From: a bacterium
GTDB taxonomy: Bacteria; Elusimicrobiota; Elusimicrobia; UBA1565; UBA9628
Reading direction: 5' to 3'
DNA length: 64,000 nt
Assembly (NCBI GenBank): GCA_021799485.1
Contig: JAJZAK010000009.1
Span: forward strand, 2,850-66,849
The translations under genes were made by a program, and so were the position numbers. This document shows, in pieces, positions 24,640 through 34,189 of this stretch (the first letter of the stretch is position 1; each line of letters starts with the position of its first letter). The notes under the pieces are model-generated. The model was given only the letters and a program-made list of their open reading frames with translations. It had not been told where the DNA came from and ran no database searches.

Positions 24640-25196
24640 TCCTCGCCTCGGCTTCTCCGCAGCGGAGAGTCCTTCTTCGAAAGCTCGGCATCCCGTTCCG
24701 GATCATCCCAAGCGGGGTGGCGGAAAACATGCGCGAGAGAAGCCCCCGGCGGCTTGTCGTCGCGCTGGCGCGCAAGAAGGCGGTCGCGATAGCCAGGAAA
24801 CGGCCGGGAGCCTTGGTGCTTGGCGCCGACACGATCGTTTGGCGGGCGGGGCGCATCATCGTCAAGCCGAAAAACGGGGCGGATTCCTTGCGGATCTTGA
24901 GATTTCTAAACGGCCGCAAGCACTGGGTCTACACCGGCGCGGCTCTCGCTTGGGATGGAGGCCGCCGCGTCTTGTCGGGCGCCGCGGCCTCGGCGGTCTA
25001 CGCGCGGCGGCTCTCGCGGGATGAATTGGCTCGCCTGGCCGGCAAGCATGGGGACAAGGCGGGCGGATACGCCGTTCAAGATCAAAAAGACCCCTTCATC
25101 TCGCGGGTCTCCGGGGACCGGGACAACGTGATCGGCCTCCCTTTGAAGCTCGTGCGGGCGTTGATGCGGCGTTACGCGACGGGCAGCAAAAAGTAG
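24615..25196 (+). CDS. maf: Maf-like nucleoside triphosphate pyrophosphatase
   Basis: LILASASPQRRVLL, GADTIV, GGYAVQD motifs; ORF 24414 trimmed. Confidence 0.85.
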   Translation: MDRPKHPLILASASPQRRVLLRKLGIPFRIIPSGVAENMRERSPRRLVVALARKKAVAIARKRPGALVLGADTIVWRAGRIIVKPKNGADSLRILRFLNGRKHWVYTGAALAWDGGRRVLSGAAASAVYARRLSRDELARLAGKHGDKAGGYAVQDQKDPFISRVSGDRDNVIGLPLKLVRALMRRYATGSKK

Positions 25197-26590
25197 AAGC
25201 AGGCGCCGCGAGGCTCGGCCTCCGTGACGCCGATCGTCCCGCCGTGCTTTTCGACCACCTTCTGGCAGAGCGCGAGGCCCAGCCCGACGTTTCCCACGTG
25301 GCGCTTGACCTCCTTCTGGTAGAATTTTCGGAAAACGTCGGCGCGAGCCTCCTCGGGGATTCCGGGGCCGGTGTCCGATATCGATGCCCGAAGGCTTCCG
25401 TTTTCGCGGCATAGCGCCAGGCGGATGGTCCCGCTTTCCGGGGTGTGCTCGACGGCGTTATGGAGGAGGTTGTCGAGGACCCGCCGCAAAAGCGTCGGAT
25501 CGCCGGAGACGCGATAGGCGCCGCCGTCGGAGATTTCCAGCTCAAGCTTCTGGCCTCGACGGCGGGTGACGAGGCCGAAGTCCTTCGCGCAGCTCCGCGC
25601 CATTTCGGCGAAGTCCACTTTCTCGCGCTGGGAGAGGTCCCCCAGCTCCGAAAGCTTCGCGAGTTGGAGGATATCCTCGACCATCCGCAAGAGCCTCGCG
25701 CTTGACTGCTCCATGAGCTCGAAGGTGCGGGGCCGGGGGCTCTGGCCGTCGCGGCGCCGCTCGATGCCCGCGGGGACGACGTGGTTGGCGTCCCATTGCT
25801 CCTTCAAAAGGTCCACTCCCGAGCGAAGGACGGTAAGCGGGGTCTTGAGGTCGTGAACCAGCATCGCCGAGAGCTCCTCTTTTTCGGCCTCGAGGCTCAT
25901 GATGCGGATTTTGTCCTCCTTGAGCTCGGACCCCATGCGGTTGACGGCGCGCTCGAGCCGGGAGAGCTCGTCGGCGCCGCCGCGCTCCAAGAAGGGCGTG
26001 AACGTCAGAGGGTCGTCGGCGATTCTCTCGATGTGCGGAATGACGAGCCGCAGCCGCAGGCCGAATTCCTCGCCTAAAAACCAGGCGAGGAGAACGATGG
26101 AGAGAACGGCCGCCGTCCCGAACTCGATGGCGTAATGGGAGCTTTCCACGAACGCGGATTCCAGACCCTGGGTGCGCAGGCTCACGAGCGCCGCGCCCTT
26201 GCCCAGGCTTCCCAGGGATATGGGGACTTGAATATCGTAGATGCCGTCGCGGACGGCCGAGAGGGGGACGCCGGGGTGCGGTTTCCGGCGCGCAAGAGCC
26301 TTCGAGTCGGCCCGGAACGCGATCGTCCGCCCCCGGCTGTTCTTGACCGCGATCGCCGCGACGCCCGCTTGACGGACGAGCCCCGCGAACTCCAAGGAAA
26401 GGTCCCGGGCGCGGCCGCGGCGCGCCTCGGCCTCGACGAAGGTCGCGACCGTTCTGGCCGTCAGGTCCGCGGAGCGCTGAGCCTGGAGGAGGGCTTGGCG
26501 CCGGAACGTTCCGAAAAGATGGCCGAGGAGGCCCGCGGCTACGATCAGGAGGATCGCGAACCAGAGGATGTAGCGCAAGGACAGCCGCAT
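25172..26590 (-). CDS. Sensor histidine kinase (2 TM, periplasmic sensor, HAMP-like linker, HisKA + HATPase_c)
   Basis: H-box MLVHDLKTPLTVL, N/G boxes (LLHNAVEHT, DTGPGIPEE, GNVGLGLALC); ORF 25172..27400 trimmed to MRLSLRYILWF TM start because upstream part is antisense to a real + strand gene. Confidence 0.8.
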   Translation of the reverse strand: MRLSLRYILWFAILLIVAAGLLGHLFGTFRRQALLQAQRSADLTARTVATFVEAEARRGRARDLSLEFAGLVRQAGVAAIAVKNSRGRTIAFRADSKALARRKPHPGVPLSAVRDGIYDIQVPISLGSLGKGAALVSLRTQGLESAFVESSHYAIEFGTAAVLSIVLLAWFLGEEFGLRLRLVIPHIERIADDPLTFTPFLERGGADELSRLERAVNRMGSELKEDKIRIMSLEAEKEELSAMLVHDLKTPLTVLRSGVDLLKEQWDANHVVPAGIERRRDGQSPRPRTFELMEQSSARLLRMVEDILQLAKLSELGDLSQREKVDFAEMARSCAKDFGLVTRRRGQKLELEISDGGAYRVSGDPTLLRRVLDNLLHNAVEHTPESGTIRLALCRENGSLRASISDTGPGIPEEARADVFRKFYQKEVKRHVGNVGLGLALCQKVVEKHGGTIGVTEAEPRGACFYFLLPVA

Positions 26591-26623
26591 GGCGTTTAGA
26601 CATAATAGTATACTCGAAAAACC

Positions 26624-27361
26624 ATGGCCGATCTCCGCGGGAAAACGGCCCTCGTCACTGGGGCGGCGAGGCGCGTCGGCCGCGCGATCGCCGAAGCCTT
26701 GGCGCGGCGGGGGATGAACCTGGCGCTCCATTTCAATCGCTCCCGCCGCGAGGCCGCGTCCTTGGCGGCGCAGCTGAGGCGATCCGGCGGAGTCCGGGTG
26801 GAGGCCTTCCAGGCGGACTTGCGAGATGTTCCCGAAACCAAGCGCATGGTCGCCCGCGCGGCGCGGGAGATGGGCGGGCTGTGGGCCCTCGTCAACAACG
26901 CCTCGCTGTATGTCAAAACCCCTTTCAAAACGGCGACCCTCAAGGATTGGGACGATCATATGGACACCAACGTGAGGGCTCCTTTTTTCCTGGCCCAGGC
27001 GGCCGCGCCTCATCTGCGCCGCGCCGGCGGCAAAATCGTCAACATCGTCGACTGGTCGGCTTTGAGGCCTTACGCGAGCTTCATGCCGTACTGCGTCTCG
27101 AAGGCGGCCCTGCTCTGCCTCAACGCGGCGCTCGCCAAGGAACTCGCGCCCCAGGTGGCGGTCAACGCCGTCTTGCCGGGTCCGGTGCTGCTTCCCGAGT
27201 CCATGACCGCCGGCCAGAGGCGGGCCGTCCAGGCGGCGACCCTGCTCAAGCGCGTGGGAGGCCCCGAGGAAGTCGCGAAGGCGGTCGTTTTTTTTCTCGA
27301 TTCGGCCGAGTTTTCGACGGGAGCCGCATTGACGGTCGACGGGGGGAGGCTCATTGCCTAA
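26624..27361 (+). CDS. Short-chain dehydrogenase/reductase, pteridine reductase (FolM/PTR1/sepiapterin-reductase-like)
   Basis: TGAARRVGRAIA Rossmann motif, YCVSKAAL catalytic Y-x3-K; 8-nt overlap with downstream PTPS/QueD gene. Confidence 0.65.
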   Translation: MADLRGKTALVTGAARRVGRAIAEALARRGMNLALHFNRSRREAASLAAQLRRSGGVRVEAFQADLRDVPETKRMVARAAREMGGLWALVNNASLYVKTPFKTATLKDWDDHMDTNVRAPFFLAQAAAPHLRRAGGKIVNIVDWSALRPYASFMPYCVSKAALLCLNAALAKELAPQVAVNAVLPGPVLLPESMTAGQRRAVQAATLLKRVGGPEEVAKAVVFFLDSAEFSTGAALTVDGGRLIA

Positions 27362-27776
27362 TCCAAAGCTTGGAGCGCCGTTTCGCGCGACGCGACGCAT
27401 CCATTTCTGCTACGGGCACAGGCTCCTCGGATACGCCGGCAAATGCCGTTTTCCGCACGGCCACAACGGCCTTGTCGAGGTCACTGTCGGCCGGGACCGC
27501 CTCGACCGGCTCGGGATGGTCATGGACTTCGAGGAGATTAAATCGAAGGTTCAGGGATGGGTGGACGAGGCCTTGGACCATAAAATGCTGCTCAACGAGA
27601 AGGACCCTCTGGTCGCGATCCTGAGGAAAATGGGAGAGCCGGTCGTCACGATGAAGGGCAACCCCACGGCGGAAAATATCGCTCGGCTCATCTTCGACCA
27701 AGCCCGTCTCCGCAAGCTTCCCGTGCTGTGCGTGCGTCTCTGGGAAACGCCTAACTCCTACGCCGAAGTCGTATAA
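27354..27776 (+). CDS. 6-pyruvoyl-tetrahydropterin synthase family protein (QueD/PTPS)
   Basis: C-x3-HGH motif (CRFPHGH), HGHNG..., 140 aa. Confidence 0.85.
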   Translation: MPNPKLGAPFRATRRIHFCYGHRLLGYAGKCRFPHGHNGLVEVTVGRDRLDRLGMVMDFEEIKSKVQGWVDEALDHKMLLNEKDPLVAILRKMGEPVVTMKGNPTAENIARLIFDQARLRKLPVLCVRLWETPNSYAEVV

Positions 27777-27786
27777 AGCCTGGCCC

Positions 27787-28803
27787 CTAACTCCGTTCTT
27801 TAAAGTAAGACTCAAAGAGCCTTAGAAGCTCGTCTTTTTGGGCGAGGGCGGCTTGAAGCTTCTCCTTTTCTTCGGCCCAGGGGGCGAAACTCGCGGCCGA
27901 CTCTTCTTTTTCCTGCTTGGCCTTGGCCGCCTCCGCCGAGGCTTTCTGGAGATCAACGGTGAGCGCGGCGATGGATCCCTCATCCTTGGCGAGCCTGGAG
28001 GCAGCCTCGTCCCGGGCTTTGCGGGCCTCCTCCAGTTCCCGCCGGGCCGCCTCCAAATCTGACCGCAGGCGTCCCAGGAGAGCTTTGTCCCGTTCCTCCC
28101 TTTCCCGGCTGATGTCCTCGCGATCGGCGAGCGCCTTTTCGGCGACGGCGGCTCGCTCCTCGAGGGTTTTGCGTCGGACGTCGAGTTCCGCGGCTGACAG
28201 GGAGGATGCGAGGCCCTTTTGCCTCTCGGCGTCGAGGCGGCGCTCGAGCTCGAAGAGGCGCTCGTTTAATGTCTTCTCGAAACCGCGGCGCTGGGACATG
28301 TAGCTTTGGAAGGCTTCCTCCTTCTCGGAAAGGGCCTTCGCGAGTTCCGCGCGCTCCGCATCGAGGGCGGCGATCGCCGCGTCCTTGGCCGAGGGGGGGC
28401 GCATGGCATCGAGCGCCTGCTCCCATTTCTCGCCCAGCTCCGCGAGCTTCGCCAGGATTCGCTCCGCGGGGGGCGACATGGCTTCGATTCTCTCCTCGAT
28501 CCGCTGGAATCGACGCGCGAGATCTTTTTCCTCGGCGAGGCGAGCCTTGGCGTACTCGGCTTGGAGCCGTCCACGTTCATCCTCAAGGGCGCGAAGCCAG
28601 GACGCGCGCTCCCTTTCCAGCGAGCGCAGGAGCGACTCGAGCTTCTCGTCCCATAAGGCCTCGCGCCGCTTGAGGTCGGCGATTCGGGCATGGGCTTCCT
28701 CGTAGAAGCGCTCAAAGCCTCCTTCGATGCGCTGGAAGGCCGCTCGCCAGCGGGCGACCTCATCGGGCGCGAGATGGGGCGACGCGTCTTCGGGCGGCAT
28801 CAT
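27787..28803 (-). CDS. Coiled-coil protein, unknown function (E/R/A/L-rich heptads)
   Basis: 338 aa, nearly entirely predicted coiled coil; ATGA start/stop overlap with upstream PorV-like gene. Confidence 0.55.
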   Translation of the reverse strand: MMPPEDASPHLAPDEVARWRAAFQRIEGGFERFYEEAHARIADLKRREALWDEKLESLLRSLERERASWLRALEDERGRLQAEYAKARLAEEKDLARRFQRIEERIEAMSPPAERILAKLAELGEKWEQALDAMRPPSAKDAAIAALDAERAELAKALSEKEEAFQSYMSQRRGFEKTLNERLFELERRLDAERQKGLASSLSAAELDVRRKTLEERAAVAEKALADREDISREREERDKALLGRLRSDLEAARRELEEARKARDEAASRLAKDEGSIAALTVDLQKASAEAAKAKQEKEESAASFAPWAEEKEKLQAALAQKDELLRLFESYFKERS

Positions 28804-29804
28804 GGCATGGAGAAGGTTTGAGACGGTTTCTTGGGAAGGTTAAAGGTCAAGCTCACGAAGCTTTCCGTACCCAGAACCCCCATCGGCACGAAGGCGTAAT
28901 CGATCGAGAAGCCCTTGAACTTGATCCCGAGGCCGGCGCTGACGGCCGACAGAACCCCCAAGCTCGATAGGGTCTCGGTGTTAAATCCCGCCCGGACCGC
29001 CCCCGAGATGTCGCGGTCGAAGTCGGCGGTGTATTCGGTCCCCACGGCGGCGAAGGCGGGGCTGTAGTTCGGCAAGGTCACGTCGCAAGAGACGAGAAGA
29101 GGCCTCCAGGGCCGCGCCGCGCCGCCCATCTTCGCTTGGAAGGGAAGGGGCTCTTGGGTTTGGACGAATTTGGGGCCGGAGCCGATGTTCTGCGCGGACA
29201 CGGCGAGGGTATAGGGGAACAGCCCGCGTTCGAAGCGCGCCATGGCCCCGATGTCGGCGCCGTAGCCGGTGGCCGTCATAAGATAATCCGAGTGGATGTA
29301 GCGGAGGGTGGCGCCTAGGTCGACGGACATGTCTCCGGAGGACATGTCGTAGATGTCCGATCCCCAGCCGAACTCGGCCACGAGGTTGTTGGGATTAAAG
29401 GTGCCGAGAGAGTTGTTGTTGACGTCCGTCTCCTGGACCGAGCCCAGGTTTTGATAGCGGAGGCCTCCGGCCAGGACGTCGAAGTCGCTGACCCGTTGGG
29501 CGTAGTTGGCCGCCTGGTAGTTGATGCCCGCGACCTGGCTTCCGTACATGAAGCTGCCGGAGGCGCGGGGAATGAGGGCCAATCCAGCGGGATTCCAAAA
29601 AATCGAATTCGAGTCGTCGGTGACCGCCGTCATGGCGCCGCCCATGGCGATGCCTCGCGCTCCGACGCCCATGAGAAGAAAATCGTCGGATGTCGTTCCG
29701 ACGCTTTGGGCATTGAAAAGGCCCGCTACGGCCGGGGGGCCCGGAGCGAGGAGGGCCAGAAGACAAAGCGAGAGAATCCGCGGGGATAAGGAGCCTAAAG
29801 TCAT
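28800..29804 (-). CDS. PorV/PorP(SprF)-like FadL-type outer-membrane beta-barrel
   Basis: Signal peptide, then ...LLMGVGARGIAMGGAMTAVTDDSNSIFWNPAGLA motif characteristic of PorV/PorP/FadL-like barrels; C-terminal ...LTFNL aromatic/hydrophobic barrel end; ATGA overlap with upstream giant CTD gene. Confidence 0.55.
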   Translation of the reverse strand: MTLGSLSPRILSLCLLALLAPGPPAVAGLFNAQSVGTTSDDFLLMGVGARGIAMGGAMTAVTDDSNSIFWNPAGLALIPRASGSFMYGSQVAGINYQAANYAQRVSDFDVLAGGLRYQNLGSVQETDVNNNSLGTFNPNNLVAEFGWGSDIYDMSSGDMSVDLGATLRYIHSDYLMTATGYGADIGAMARFERGLFPYTLAVSAQNIGSGPKFVQTQEPLPFQAKMGGAARPWRPLLVSCDVTLPNYSPAFAAVGTEYTADFDRDISGAVRAGFNTETLSSLGVLSAVSAGLGIKFKGFSIDYAFVPMGVLGTESFVSLTFNLPKKPSQTFSMP

Positions 29805-32800
29805 CGCAGGATCACGATCTTGTGGATTTGCGAGCCTCCGTTCGACTGGATGACGGCGAGGTAAAGCCCGCTCGCGACCGGTTGCCCGGAGGCGTTGCTG
29901 CCGTTCCAAAGGTAGGTGCCCGTCGCGCCTACGCTAACATCCAAGACCCGGAGGCCGCGCGTGGTGAAGATCCTCAGCCGCGACCCGGAGGGCAGGTTGG
30001 CGAAGGTCATGTCGAGGGAGCGCGAGGGATAAAAGGGGTTCGGGTAGATCTCGACCGGGCCCAGAGTCGAGGCGGGCTGGATTTGCGTCACTTCGTAGGT
30101 CGCGAGCTGGTCGATGGTGGCCGTGACGAGGTTCGTGGCGGAGTCGAAGGTGGTCGGAACGGGGTGGCATTGCTTCCCGACGGGGTCGTAGCGCATGACG
30201 GAGTATTCGCTGGTGGGTTGAGGAAGCTCCGCCGAGGTGTAGGACATGACGAGTTGGAGGGATCCCGTCGGTTGGATGTTCGCTCCGGGGTAGACGGTGC
30301 TGAGAGCGACGGCGATGCCGGTGCCCAGGCTGCCGCAGGGCAGGGGGGAGGGGGCCGCCGCGAGGACCTCGATCGAGGAATAAGAGGTGGCGAATGATCC
30401 CGCGGGTATCGTCAGTTGGACGAGTTCGCCGTCTCCAAGAGACCCCGTGACGTTGTTTATCGTCGTCGGATAGACGATGCCGCAAATCTCGCCCGGGGGC
30501 GCGGAGCAGGAGGCGGAGGCGGTCGCGGTGATCACGGCGGGGGATGCCGCCGACGGCCCGTCGCCCGAGAGATTGTACGCCGCGACGATGATGGCATTGG
30601 GGCTTCCGGGAACGGCGTTGGTCTGAACGTAGCTGGGCGCGCCGCTCACCGCGACCGTCGCGATCCAGAGGCCCGTCGAGGAGTCGTAAACGTCGTAGCC
30701 GTCGACGGGGTAGCCGGGCAGCTGCGACACGGGGTTCCATGTCCACTGGATCGCCGTCGCCGTCAAGGTCGAGCCCATGATATTGGTCGGGGCGGCCGCC
30801 GGCTTGAGAGGCCCTGCCTGCACGATGTAGCCGTTCGAGAACTGGGCGTTGGCTCCCACGCGCAATTGATACCAGCCCAAGGGCAGTGTGTCGGAGAGAG
30901 GAGGAGGATAGGCGGCGCCCATGACCGCCGTCAGGGAGCTGTTGATCAAATTCCAGGGCGTAATGGCGGCCGGTCCGTAATACAATTCGGTCGATAGGTC
31001 GACCGTGAAGCCTCCTCCTCCTTGCGGCCCCCCGCCGGATCCGGCCAGGGCCTGCAGGCTTAGTCGCGGGCCGTAAAAAAACGAGTTCGATCCGGCGCCG
31101 CCGCCGCTGGAGCCTTCGGTCATTCCTTGGAAATTCGATCCGGTCAGCGTGAATGAGTTTCCCGGGTAGAACGACGAGGCGTTCGAGCCCGTGACGGCGG
31201 GCTGGCGAATGCTTGGCGGGGCGCCGGCGGTGAGGGCGTCAGGGAAGGATGTGAAGTAACCGGACTCGATGGAATTGAGGTAGTTCGAGCCGCCGCCCGA
31301 TCCTCCGATGACGTAAAGGTAGCCGTTGGGAGCGAGGACGGTCGTATGTCCGATCCGTCCTTGTTTGATTTCGAAAGTGTAGGTGCTCCATGATTGAGTG
31401 TAGGGATCGAAGAATTCGTCGGCGTCGGGATTGGCGATAATGCCGGACCCCTGGGCTCCGCCGATGACCCAGACTTCGCCGTCGGGAAGGGCGACGGCGT
31501 TATGTCCAAAGCGCGGCGTCTGGAGCGGGCCTGTGGCGCTCCACTGCGATCCGGACGGCATATTAGGATTGAAAATGTAGGAGGAGCTCGTTTCGCCGCC
31601 GCCGTTGTCGCCTCCGGTGACGAGGACGCGTCCATCGGGCAGAAGGGTGGCCTGATGGTTGTAGAGCGCGGCCGGCATGGGGTCGACGCTCACCCATCCT
31701 GATCCGGGGGTGTAAATGGCGGCGTTTTTGACCGGGCCCCCGGCATTGATGCCTCCGCAGGCGAGAACGGCGCCGTCGCGCAGCAGCGTCATCGCGAGAT
31801 TGGACGCGCTATAGGGAAGGCTGGCGGTGGCGGACCATAGACCGGTCGTGGAAGCGTAAACCTCGGCCGAGCTGAGGTAGGAGCCGCCCAATTGGTTGCC
31901 TCCGGCGACCAAGACGGTTCCATCCGGCAAAAGAAGCATGCCGTGGTTTTGGCGCGCGTTTTGCATGCTGCCCGTCATGGCCCAGGCGCCCAGGGCCGAA
32001 AAATAGATTTCCGCCGTCGCCGTGGTCTGGGTCGATCCGCCGACGTCCGTCTGGCCGCCGGCCACCAGCACATTGCCGTTGACCAGGAGCGTCGCCGTAT
32101 GAAGGGCGCGCGGGTAGCTCATCGAGCCCGTCGCGGTGACGGAGTTGCCGTTCGGGTTGAGAATTTCAGCCGAATTCAGGAACCCGGACACATTTTCGCC
32201 GCCTGCCGTCAGAATGGTTCCGCTCGAAAGCAAGGTGCTCGTATGGTTCGCCCGGGCCGTCTGGAGGGAAGCGCTCCCCGTCGCGAAGCTGCGATAATAA
32301 AGGAGAGTCCGCAGGTTCTGATTGGCGGGACTGCAGGGAGCGATCGTGGGAACGGCGGCGGAGCAGGTCAGGCCTCCTGTCGCCAAGATCGAGTCGTTGG
32401 GGCGAAGCACGGCGGCGTGGCCGTAGGATTCGATGCTGCCGTAGTTTGGATGGTTGGCGAACGTCCAGGTGTTGGCCGCGGGGGAATATTGCTCCTCGTC
32501 TCCGAAGATCATGGAGTTGATGACGATCGTCGCGATGGCGACCGAGTAGTTCTTTCCGGTTAAATCAATATAGGCGGACACGGCCCCGCCCACATTATTC
32601 GGGTCTGTCCCGACCGGGGTCGTGGAGACATAGACGGTTCCACAACCGCTGGCGCCGCAAGCCATGGTGTCGCTCATCGCGCTGAGGGAGATGTTGTTGA
32701 GGGTGATCTGGCCGCAGTTCCCCGAGCTGCCGCACGTGACCCTCACGCCCGCGAGGCAGACGGCGGCGCCTTGAAGGTTGGAGCAGCTCGTCCCTTGCCC

Positions 32801-34078
32801 GCCGTCCGAGCCCGGAGGATTCGTTCCCTGGAAACCGAAAACGACGGTCCCGCTCGCGAAGGAGACGTTCGCGGAGGAGAAAAGAATATAGCCGTCCTTG
32901 ATCATGCCCGTCGCCTGCACGCCCAAGGACACGCTTAATTGGGAGAAGTTCAGGTTGTAGCTTTGTATTGGCGCCGAGGCGTTCGGGGCCAACGAGAAGT
33001 TGCTGCATGCGCTGGGCATGGCGCACGGGGAGTTGAAGGTCACGGTGGAGCCGGTCTGCAGGGAGCCGGAGGCCGCGACATAGGTGGTCGTGATCGTGCC
33101 GAGCCCGCCAAAAAGGTAGACGCCGCCGTCCGCCTGCAGCGTGGCCGTGTGAAGGGCCTTGTACTCCTCCATGGGTTGGCCCAGCGTGACGCTGCCGGAG
33201 GTCGGGTCATAGATTTCCGTTCCAGCGAGATAGCCGCCGGGGCCGGGGCCGGTGGTCGAGTCGCCCGGATTGGCGATGCCGCCGGCGATGAGGACCTGGT
33301 TGTCGCCCATCAAGGTCGCCGTGTGATAGGCCCGATGGACGGAGAGGGGGGTGGAGGCGCTGAAGGCGTTGGCCGACGGATCGTAAAGTTCGGTCGAGAG
33401 AAGAAATCCGTCGGTCGAGTTGTAGCCGCCCGCAATGAAGACGCGGCCGTCGGAGAGAAGCGTCGCGGTGTGGCCCGTGCGTTGGGTGGTCATTGTGATC
33501 AGAGAAGTATTGAACGCCCCGGGCGCTCCACTAAAGGAGCAATTGGGATCGTTGGCCGGAAGGGGAAGCGAGGCCGAGGGGGTAAACATCTCGCAGCTTT
33601 GATGAAAGGTCGGCGTGTTGTCCTGCCCGCCGCAGACGAGGACGGAGCCATTAGACAGAAGGGTCGCCGTGTGGTCGTAGCGGGCTTTCGTCAGGGGGAT
33701 CGTCGTTCCATACATGCAGTGATAGACGGGATTGTAGACCTCGGCGGTATTGCTGACTCCCGTAGGCGAACAACTGTTGCCGCTGCAATAGACGCCGCCC
33801 ACCAGCAAGACGTCGCCGTTCGGCAGCAACGTGGCCGTATGCGAAGCCCGCGCGACGGACATGGTCGCCGAAAGTGTCGTGGCGCTTCCGTTGTTGGCGT
33901 TGATCAACACGATTTGATTGGAGAGTCCGCTCGTCGTTGAATAACCGCCCGTCAGGAGGATGTTGTCGTCCGGAAGAAGCGTCGCGGTTTGGTCGGCGAG
34001 GGTTTGGGCCGCCGCCGAAATCGCAAAAAATGCGGAGGAGAAGGCGGCGCAGGCAAGGACGGCCTTTGTCACGCGCAT
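29801..34078 (-). CDS. Giant secreted protein: ~13 Kelch-like blades (two beta-propellers) + Ig/FN3-like region + C-terminal T9SS/FlgD-Ig-like sorting domain
   Basis: Signal peptide; recurring HTATLLxxGxVLVxGG blades; C-terminus IYPNPFYPSRSLDMTF...LWNGSNASGQPVASGLYLAVIQSNGGSQIHKIVILR matches Por-secretion/FlgD-Ig CTD consensus. Confidence 0.8.
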   Translation of the reverse strand: MRVTKAVLACAAFSSAFFAISAAAQTLADQTATLLPDDNILLTGGYSTTSGLSNQIVLINANNGSATTLSATMSVARASHTATLLPNGDVLLVGGVYCSGNSCSPTGVSNTAEVYNPVYHCMYGTTIPLTKARYDHTATLLSNGSVLVCGGQDNTPTFHQSCEMFTPSASLPLPANDPNCSFSGAPGAFNTSLITMTTQRTGHTATLLSDGRVFIAGGYNSTDGFLLSTELYDPSANAFSASTPLSVHRAYHTATLMGDNQVLIAGGIANPGDSTTGPGPGGYLAGTEIYDPTSGSVTLGQPMEEYKALHTATLQADGGVYLFGGLGTITTTYVAASGSLQTGSTVTFNSPCAMPSACSNFSLAPNASAPIQSYNLNFSQLSVSLGVQATGMIKDGYILFSSANVSFASGTVVFGFQGTNPPGSDGGQGTSCSNLQGAAVCLAGVRVTCGSSGNCGQITLNNISLSAMSDTMACGASGCGTVYVSTTPVGTDPNNVGGAVSAYIDLTGKNYSVAIATIVINSMIFGDEEQYSPAANTWTFANHPNYGSIESYGHAAVLRPNDSILATGGLTCSAAVPTIAPCSPANQNLRTLLYYRSFATGSASLQTARANHTSTLLSSGTILTAGGENVSGFLNSAEILNPNGNSVTATGSMSYPRALHTATLLVNGNVLVAGGQTDVGGSTQTTATAEIYFSALGAWAMTGSMQNARQNHGMLLLPDGTVLVAGGNQLGGSYLSSAEVYASTTGLWSATASLPYSASNLAMTLLRDGAVLACGGINAGGPVKNAAIYTPGSGWVSVDPMPAALYNHQATLLPDGRVLVTGGDNGGGETSSSYIFNPNMPSGSQWSATGPLQTPRFGHNAVALPDGEVWVIGGAQGSGIIANPDADEFFDPYTQSWSTYTFEIKQGRIGHTTVLAPNGYLYVIGGSGGGSNYLNSIESGYFTSFPDALTAGAPPSIRQPAVTGSNASSFYPGNSFTLTGSNFQGMTEGSSGGGAGSNSFFYGPRLSLQALAGSGGGPQGGGGFTVDLSTELYYGPAAITPWNLINSSLTAVMGAAYPPPLSDTLPLGWYQLRVGANAQFSNGYIVQAGPLKPAAAPTNIMGSTLTATAIQWTWNPVSQLPGYPVDGYDVYDSSTGLWIATVAVSGAPSYVQTNAVPGSPNAIIVAAYNLSGDGPSAASPAVITATASASCSAPPGEICGIVYPTTINNVTGSLGDGELVQLTIPAGSFATSYSSIEVLAAAPSPLPCGSLGTGIAVALSTVYPGANIQPTGSLQLVMSYTSAELPQPTSEYSVMRYDPVGKQCHPVPTTFDSATNLVTATIDQLATYEVTQIQPASTLGPVEIYPNPFYPSRSLDMTFANLPSGSRLRIFTTRGLRVLDVSVGATGTYLWNGSNASGQPVASGLYLAVIQSNGGSQIHKIVILR

Positions 34079-34189
34079 AGTAGTAGGATGGCGGCTAACG
34101 GCGCAGCAGCCGAAGCTTACCAGCCGGATTGTTACAAAAAGATAGCGATTTTAATAAGAAGCGTTAAGGGTGTTGAAAGACTGCCGGGG

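Follow-up and report, generated by a model that had tools for sequence, protein, structure and literature searches.

Type IX secretion system (T9SS) cargo reaches its carrier by two routes, a general PorV shuttle that serves type A C-terminal domains (CTDs) and cognate PorP/SprF barrels that serve type B CTDs. Beside these stand PorZ-PorQ and PorU-PorV, a pair of special cases whose uncleaved CTD remains on a PorV-family barrel. Here we analyse a 64,000-nucleotide stretch of DNA from an uncultured member of the Elusimicrobia (contig JAJZAK010000009.1, positions 2,850 to 66,849; hereafter the window), which encodes a 1425-residue Kelch protein (the giant) ending in a predicted T9SS-type CTD, and, overlapping its stop codon, a barrel of the PorV/PorQ family. 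Both parts, CTD and barrel, are already named by annotation pipelines, and a cargo-specific cassette of CTD and barrel, conserved and multi-copy in Elusimicrobia, appears to be undescribed in the literature searched.

The PorZ and PorU CTDs stay uncleaved, anchored to PorQ and PorV respectively (PMC5562754, PMC10947112), and share an extra β-hairpin after strand 5 (L-β5-β6), where PorZ carries the insertion N-A-R-G-A-D-G-N-R-V-A and RgpB has 3 residues (PMC11285876). In type B systems, the linked barrel both carries and anchors its cargo, and a genome holds several such cognate pairs (PMC12618676, PMC9143113). Two sources describe the T9SS as restricted to the Bacteroidota or to the Fibrobacteres-Chlorobi-Bacteroidetes (FCB) group (PMC5445135, PMC12398890).

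For the giant and its barrel, the parallel that we propose is PorZ-PorQ of the T9SS attachment complex of Porphyromonas gingivalis, in which PorQ holds PorZ. The giant was nevertheless rejected as a PorZ orthologue, since the PorZ model (NF052228) matches its CTD only, with 48 bits where the cut-off is 260, and its propellers are of the Kelch type. The barrel likewise scores too low for the PorQ equivalog; here the genes lie side by side and overlap, and such pairs are many, with varied passengers and several to a genome; the host phylum is Elusimicrobia and not Bacteroidota; and PorZ is a delivery protein for anionic lipopolysaccharide (A-LPS). Compared with PorU-PorV, in which a sortase is anchored by its retained CTD, the giant is without a sortase or peptidase domain and the barrel falls under the PorV equivalog score. 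The locus resembles the pairs of type B cargo and PorP/SprF carrier (SprB-SprF, Fjoh_3952-Fjoh_3951, PG1035-PorP) in that the cargo gene is linked to its own barrel gene, but the CTD here is type A/PorZ-like, unmatched by TIGR04131, and the barrel belongs to the PorV/PorQ family. With canonical type A CTDs (RgpB, NucA, RemA; TIGR04183/PF18962) the domain has in common its fold, a PNP at the start, the Gly and Lys that are conserved, and a TIGR04183 score that exceeds the cut-off; unlike the window CTD, these lack the long L-β5-β6 hairpin, are cleaved by PorU and use one shared PorV. The Ig-like domain of FlgD (PF13860) is a similar small β-sandwich, whose profiles cross-match the CTD weakly.

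Family assignment of the C-terminal domain

The gene of the giant occupies 29801..34078 on the minus strand, as defined by its open reading frame (ORF) and translation, and the CTD covers residues 1344-1425 (29804..30049, minus strand), a T9SS-type β-sandwich assigned to the PorZ/PorU-like subclass. The original prediction, made from sequence alone, had described a C-terminal sorting domain of about 85 residues with mixed type A, type B and FlgD-Ig features, which left open whether PorV or PorP/SprF served as its export adaptor. The domain is indeed C-terminal, and the strings quoted for it are exact, with IYPNPF starting at residue 1344 (nucleotide 30049), LWNGSNASGQPVASGLY at residue 1390 and the protein ending HKIVILR at residue 1425, but its length is 82 residues (nucleotides 30049..29804). 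It ends at the last residue of a protein with a signal-peptide-like N-terminus, and 63 of 65 related CTDs finish within 5 residues of the stop.

In Pfam, the CTD resembles three families, Por_Secre_tail (PF18962; 21.5-21.7 bits), FlgD_ig (PF13860; 18.7 bits) and CHU_C (PF13585; 16.4 bits), all below the gathering score of 27 that applies to each. The three-family likeness noted earlier is thus real within Pfam, if sub-threshold throughout; the idea of a hybrid domain does not hold, as NCBIfam models separate the candidates. The type A model TIGR04183, whose curated cut-off is 23, gives 30.9-31.1 bits (E 2e-7), and the strongest local NCBIfam match falls at the C-terminal end of the PorZ profile (E 6.6e-13, profile positions 659-755 of 757), while the FlgD models reach only E ~2e-3 and the type B model TIGR04131 gave no match to the window CTD at E <= 1. 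We gathered 46 related CTDs and scanned each with NCBIfam and Pfam, counting relatives at E <= 0.01 (TIGR04183, CHU_C). The C-terminus of PorZ was matched by 45 of the 46, TIGR04183 by 44, the C-terminus of PorU by 18 and the best FlgD model by 9; TIGR04131 was not among the ten families matched by any of them. The supposed ambiguity of family is resolved by these results, TIGR04183 passing and TIGR04131 being absent; the adjacent barrel belongs to the PorV/PorQ family.

The same 46 relatives remain divided among the three Pfam families (31/46, 30/46 and 26/46, with CHU_C matching 30), and relatives in the databases bear mixtures of Por_Secre_tail, FlgD_ig and CHU_C labels. NCBI calls them 'T9SS type A sorting domain-containing protein', and auto-annotation at JGI names some 'flagellar hook assembly protein FlgD'. 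These names and labels come from a profile search of a protein database with the 46 CTDs, which returned short proteins and fragments and was used for names and Pfam labels, not for counts; a word-indexed protein search with the CTD alone (99 residues) gave no match. Because the split persists across the relatives and the database labels are mixed, the three-way ambiguity stems from overlapping Pfam models and not from the giant itself.

Direct comparisons point to the same relatives. BLASTP aligned the window CTD with that of PorZ end to end (33% identity over 92 residues, E 4e-13), both stopping at a terminal Arg. Against all PDB sequences, the 46-CTD profile found PorZ (5m11, residues 668-758) at E 8.9e-17, followed by the type A CTD of NucA (4e-7) and PorU (6za2, 1e-6), with FlgD chains at 0.015-0.09 and the RgpB CTD at 0.016. 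An AlphaFold2 model of the domain (mean predicted local distance difference test score, pLDDT, 92.8) is a seven-stranded Ig-like 3+4 β-sandwich, the fold of type A CTDs. The domain is closest in sequence and fold to the PorZ CTD and next to that of PorU, so that profiles, alignments and the fold model all support its assignment as a PorZ-like member of the T9SS CTD class.

The key residues of the CTD are P1346-N-P1348, G1375, W1391, S1403-G1404, Y1406, K1420 and the terminal R1425. Its block W-x-G-x-N-x-x-G-x-x-V-A-S-G-x-Y aligns with PorZ WNARGADGNRVASGVY, and within it the segment N-G-S-N-A-S-G-Q-P-V-A matches, in every column, the PorZ hairpin insertion tested in PMC11285876; in the AlphaFold2 model, an excursion of ~12 residues lies between the strands at 59-61 and 74-82. 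On this alignment, the block written WdG...G..v.sGvY is the predicted PorZ/PorU hairpin plus strand 6, which is why the CTD had seemed hybrid. The block and the KxVILR ending, previously taken as marks of type B or FlgD domains, are instead features of PorZ/PorU-type CTDs, and PorZ itself ends ...FAVIR. Two further motifs, as defined in PMC11285876 and PMC10994853, are conserved among the 46 CTDs: the L-β3-β4 Gly (G1375) is invariant, and the Lys in the middle of β7 (K1420; motif C-t.) is at least 90% conserved. This Gly is required for secretion of RgpB (PMC11285876), and the Lys hydrogen-bonds PorV loops as the one conserved type A CTD contact in the substrate-bound translocon (PMC10994853).

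The barrel and its pairing with CTD-bearing cargoes

The adjacent barrel noted in the original prediction is real. Its gene (28800..29804, minus strand) encodes 334 residues with their own signal peptide, ending ...PPAVA before G, and its start overlaps the stop of the giant (29803..29801, minus strand) in an ATGA at 29801..29804, where the reverse complement of 29798-29807 reads GCGATGACTT. A second ATGA joins the barrel stop to the start of a third gene (27787..28803, minus strand), so that such overlaps connect all three genes; the giant/barrel overlap suggests translational coupling. Independent metagenome contigs give identical calls for the giant/barrel gene boundaries, and the identical giant with the same gene order is present on 16 of them.

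The subfamily profile NF033709 places the barrel in the PorV/PorQ family with a score above the cut-off, and its fold is the FadL-like 14-strand barrel; both HMM and fold distinguish it from PorP/SprF. Its scores fall well below the equivalog cut-offs (NF033710/NF033711), at 72.1 against 250 for PorV and 99.8 against 220 for PorQ, which marks it as a separate branch of the family, neither PorV nor PorQ proper.

Barrel homologues come mostly from Elusimicrobia metagenome-assembled genomes (MAGs). A genome scan with the barrel alignment yielded 80 loci, and the pairing counts below refer to these barrel-selected loci plus the window. Most are from Elusimicrobia, some from Lindowbacteria, Desantisbacteria, Armatimonadota and Coatesbacteria, and others from FCB phyla, Zixibacteria and Ignavibacteriales among them; at 88% identity, L007 is the closest to the window. 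A CTD-bearing ORF ends 3-228 nucleotides upstream of 53 of the 86 barrels, a set that takes in 24 of the 25 best-matching loci, and five further loci have the reverse order, barrel and then CTD protein. Judging by how densely CTD ORFs occur in this DNA, we estimate chance adjacency at ~1-2%. Three CTD proteins found with a profile independent of the barrel (L207-L209), two of them from Elusimicrobia, all have a barrel directly downstream.

The pairs occur in several copies per MAG (L024 and L207 in JACPOW01, L012 and L039 in JAQUNT01, three in JASEIO01), and locus L071 holds a tandem of two. Between paralogous pairs of the same MAG, CTD and barrel alike show 31-34% identity; between orthologous pairs across MAGs, both show ~80%. 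Over the 53 pairs, CTD and barrel distances correlate with a Mantel r of 0.84, a value reached by none of 2000 permutations; this correlation of the two distance matrices shows that the CTD-barrel pair has been inherited and duplicated as one unit, its conservation and co-divergence extending across Elusimicrobia and some neighbouring candidate phyla.

The passengers vary. Outside the Kelch-giant loci, cargoes share only their last 100-330 residues, and they include arrays of FN3 and purple-acid-phosphatase-N (PAP_N) domains, a pro-kumamolisin peptidase, PD40+DUF11 proteins and Big_13 arrays. The giant of the window has two Kelch β-propeller regions at residues ~25-340 and ~560-960, as matched by Pfam (Kelch_4, E 3.5e-54; Kelch_6; Beta-prop_ATRN-LZTR1). 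An FN3 domain (Pfam fn3, residues 1096-1176) and another β-rich module then lead to the CTD, the whole FN3 + Ig-like module covering residues ~1090-1343 (30050..30811, minus strand); RgpB likewise has an immunoglobulin superfamily (IgSF) domain before its CTD. This module is common to otherwise unrelated cargoes of other pairs. Orthologues of the Kelch giant, 1750-2150 residues long, are found in ~20 Elusimicrobia MAG loci. Alignments by phmmer span query residues 1084-1425 in L046, L031, L039 and L035 and are shorter and C-terminal, from about residue 1198, in L034 and L033; the N-terminal parts differ in both sets. Cargo homology between different pairs reaches ~250 residues upstream of the CTD, so that the unit conserved at the C-terminus may extend beyond the CTD itself.

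At the other end of the giant, the n-region is positive, the core is hydrophobic and an A-A-A motif is present, which together indicate a probable Sec signal peptide, read from the sequence as MRVTKAVLACAAFSSAFFAISAAA followed by Q (34007..34078, minus strand). A lipoprotein reading of the giant, based on V-L-A-C at residues 7-10, was rejected, as too few residues precede the Cys to make up a lipoprotein signal.

Clustering all ORFs of the 80 loci in search of conserved cassette genes, for instance a translocon, returned one further member, the third gene. It encodes a highly charged coiled-coil protein of 338 residues, without a signal peptide and with weak OmpH/SMC-like coiled-coil matches only. 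Positional homologues of 500-590 residues with a Pro-rich N-terminus directly follow the barrel in 16 related Elusimicrobia loci, although low-complexity bias may inflate their scores; homologue loci are L007-L010, L014-L016, L018-L021, L023-L026, L028 and L050.

Other arrangements occur among the barrel loci. The barrels of FCB phyla have no CTD neighbour and are preceded by a small LptE gene. Ten such barrels were noted (L062-L064, L073, L078, L080, L081, L083, L084 and L086), from Zixibacteria and Ignavibacteriales, with no phylum given for L064; in these loci the barrel follows a conserved gene of ~170-190 residues ending ...TKSW, whose L062 copy is a homologue of the lipopolysaccharide-assembly protein LptE, and a conserved ORF of ~160 residues comes after it. 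A second clade has the order barrel, CTD protein and a TPR protein of ~930-1030 residues (L049 1..20915, on OY969767.1; L032 2405..5197). In L049 the TPR protein resembles CpoB/YbgF and BamD, and TolQ and a TolA/TonB-like gene are located a few genes upstream of the trio. In L030 (10933..20934) and L044 (930..10871), the barrel is directly followed by an ORF longer than 3300 residues that runs off the end of the locus; the L030 ORF has no Pfam match. Both may represent very large cargoes, arranged barrel first, with C-termini that lie outside the locus. In L208 (5038..7329), two small tandem CTD ORFs precede a barrel split over three reading frames, probably through frameshift errors in a long-read assembly, and a Peptidase_S74 gene fragment is nearby on the same contig.

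Proposed docking of the giant on its barrel

We give a probability of roughly 60% to the reading that the last 82 residues of the giant are a T9SS-class sorting and anchoring domain of the retained, PorZ/PorU-like kind that docks on the giant's own barrel. Sec would export the giant by way of the N-terminal signal peptide from which this step is deduced, and the protein would then cross the outer membrane through a translocon encoded outside the window. Extracellular loops of the co-translated 14-strand PorV/PorQ-family barrel would next capture the CTD, a step to which family membership and gene linkage point, along with the conserved Lys and the precedents of PorQ-PorZ and PorV-PorU (PMC5562754). 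As the putative dedicated docking partner of the giant, the barrel would serve as carrier and non-covalent anchor, with two Kelch propellers on the cell surface; that the CTD would be retained is argued from its PorZ/PorU-like subtype.

Several observations weigh against docking. No T9SS core gene (SprA/Sov, PorK/L/M/N, PorU) was found in the 64-kb window or in the cassette flanks examined. PF18962 stays below its gathering score for the giant (21.5 against 27). Linked genes that share their descent can yield such a Mantel correlation with no physical interaction. The conserved coiled-coil third gene, lacking a signal peptide, has no place in the docking model. The organisms are uncultured MAGs; physical docking, CTD retention, surface display and the identity of the translocon are what we infer. 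Finally, metagenomes scanned for W-x-[GA]-x-N-x-x-G-x-x-V-A-S-G-[LIVMF]-Y by a degenerate DNA pattern gave 113 C-terminal CTDs, 99 of them with at least 600 nucleotides of downstream sequence, and 93 of these 99 had no adjacent barrel (the other 6 were followed by one). The hairpin block is thus widespread in environmental CTDs and does not by itself predict barrel pairing, and it was dropped as a marker of barrel-paired CTDs. Barrel-paired CTDs of the genome loci tend to have a PorZ-like ending, K-[LVI]-[AV]-[VI]-x-R; the unpaired metagenomic ones mostly end K-M-x-L-L-K.

Core genes were also absent from the L049 locus of the complete Elusimicrobia genome OY969767.1, where the TPR protein matched PorW/SprE with 65 bits, far under the cut-off of 250. 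Our literature search returned no report tying Elusimicrobia to the T9SS or PorV, and nothing relevant on FlgD-Ig domains with the T9SS.

The best-surviving alternative, which we regard as rather unlikely, is that the giant is a classical type A substrate. The barrel would then be an ordinary PorV shuttle and the CTD a transient signal removed by a PorU-like sortase, with passage through a SprA/Sov translocon encoded elsewhere and the giant released or linked to lipopolysaccharide. TIGR04183 above its cut-off, the PorV-contacting Lys, the PorV family of the barrel and the name NCBI gives to the relatives all fit this account. However, the CTD is nearest to the uncleaved CTDs of PorZ and PorU and has their extra hairpin, a likeness that would argue against its removal by a PorU sortase, as far as sequence and analogy allow. 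A single general shuttle would not need one barrel gene per cargo gene and several pairs per genome, and the barrel lies under both the PorV and the PorQ equivalog cut-offs. Neither PorU nor SprA was seen in the neighbourhoods examined, and the T9SS is described as restricted to the Bacteroidota/FCB group in the two sources cited above.

A self-contained display system independent of the T9SS, in which the CTD and the PorV-like barrel, perhaps with the coiled-coil protein, suffice to pass the cargo across the outer membrane and anchor it without a SprA-type translocon, seems to us unlikely. Consistent with it, the three-gene cassette is the only conserved unit, its flanks being housekeeping genes that differ between clades; no T9SS core gene occurs in any neighbourhood examined, and the literature searched held no T9SS report for Elusimicrobia. 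Against it, translocation of a protein of more than 1400 residues is not known for any FadL/PorV-type 14-strand barrel, and the coiled-coil protein is unlikely to act at the outer membrane because it has no signal peptide.

The reading of the CTD as a FlgD-type Ig-like fold of purely structural or adhesive function, whose adjacency to a barrel would have no functional meaning, is already disfavoured and very improbable: the FlgD_ig match at 18.7 bits, the FlgD NCBIfam value of E ~2e-3 and the JGI 'FlgD' names speak for it, and assignment to PF13860 was rejected, the match being sub-threshold, without flagellar context, and FlgD lying outside the top structural matches. Least probable of all is a type B CTD using a PorP/SprF-type partner, for although the CHU_C match (16.4 bits against 27; 30 of 46 relatives) and a cargo beside its own barrel gene mimic SprB-SprF type pairs (PMC12618676), type B membership is refuted at the level of profiles and models by the absence of TIGR04131 from the window CTD and its 46 relatives and by a linked barrel that is PorV/PorQ and not PorP/SprF.

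Flanking features and meaning of the cassette

Upstream of the cassette, a sigma-70-like promoter candidate lies at 34148..34176 (minus strand), ~70 nucleotides before the ATG of the giant. With 9 of 12 matches, it is the sole sigma-70-like match in the region; such matches are no more frequent than in shuffled sequence, which makes it a weak candidate. An upstream ORF of 431 residues was rejected as a member of the unit, being common only to the closest relative, L007. On the other side, a histidine kinase ORF (25172..27400, minus strand) has 742 residues from its first ATG and 472 on metagenome contigs; where the ORF begins is uncertain, and the call of its N-terminal sensor region may be wrong.

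Synteny among close relatives accounts for the recurrent neighbours other than the coiled-coil gene, namely transaldolase/PGI, a CBM48 protein, a zinc alcohol dehydrogenase and a PMT_2 glycosyltransferase. One ORF cluster recurs ~3.4 kb downstream of the barrel in the clade whose Kelch giants have 1800-2100 residues (L008 12497..14197, L015 10968..14147 and ~10 other loci). In L008 and L015 it is a PMT_2 glycosyltransferase of the ArnT/dolichyl-phosphate-mannose type, and its recurrence may be no more than synteny or may be tied to glycosylation of the surface protein.

For annotation, our results mean that triple Por_Secre_tail/FlgD_ig/CHU_C matches and the JGI 'FlgD' names arise where related models overlap, not from hybrid domains. 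For the T9SS, they turn the special case of PorZ-PorQ and PorU-PorV into a gene architecture that is general and repeated, in a phylum beyond the described range of the system, in which PorZ-like CTDs are paired one-to-one with PorV/PorQ-like barrels, with varied passengers and several pairs per genome. If docking is true, the cassette would offer a route to predicting surface-displayed giant proteins in uncultured diderm bacteria, would supply dozens of natural cognate CTD-barrel pairs for studying the specificity of CTD and carrier, and would bear on the evolution of the T9SS carrier step. A broader proposal, which we hold to be doubtful, is that Elusimicrobia and certain neighbouring candidate phyla possess a modular form of surface display in which a PorZ-like retained CTD and its own barrel work without the translocon and motor of the Bacteroidota T9SS. 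Were such a T9SS-independent module real, the interaction between CTD and carrier would be older and more widespread than the T9SS, and PorZ-PorQ and PorU-PorV would be survivors of an ancestral docking of cargo on barrel.

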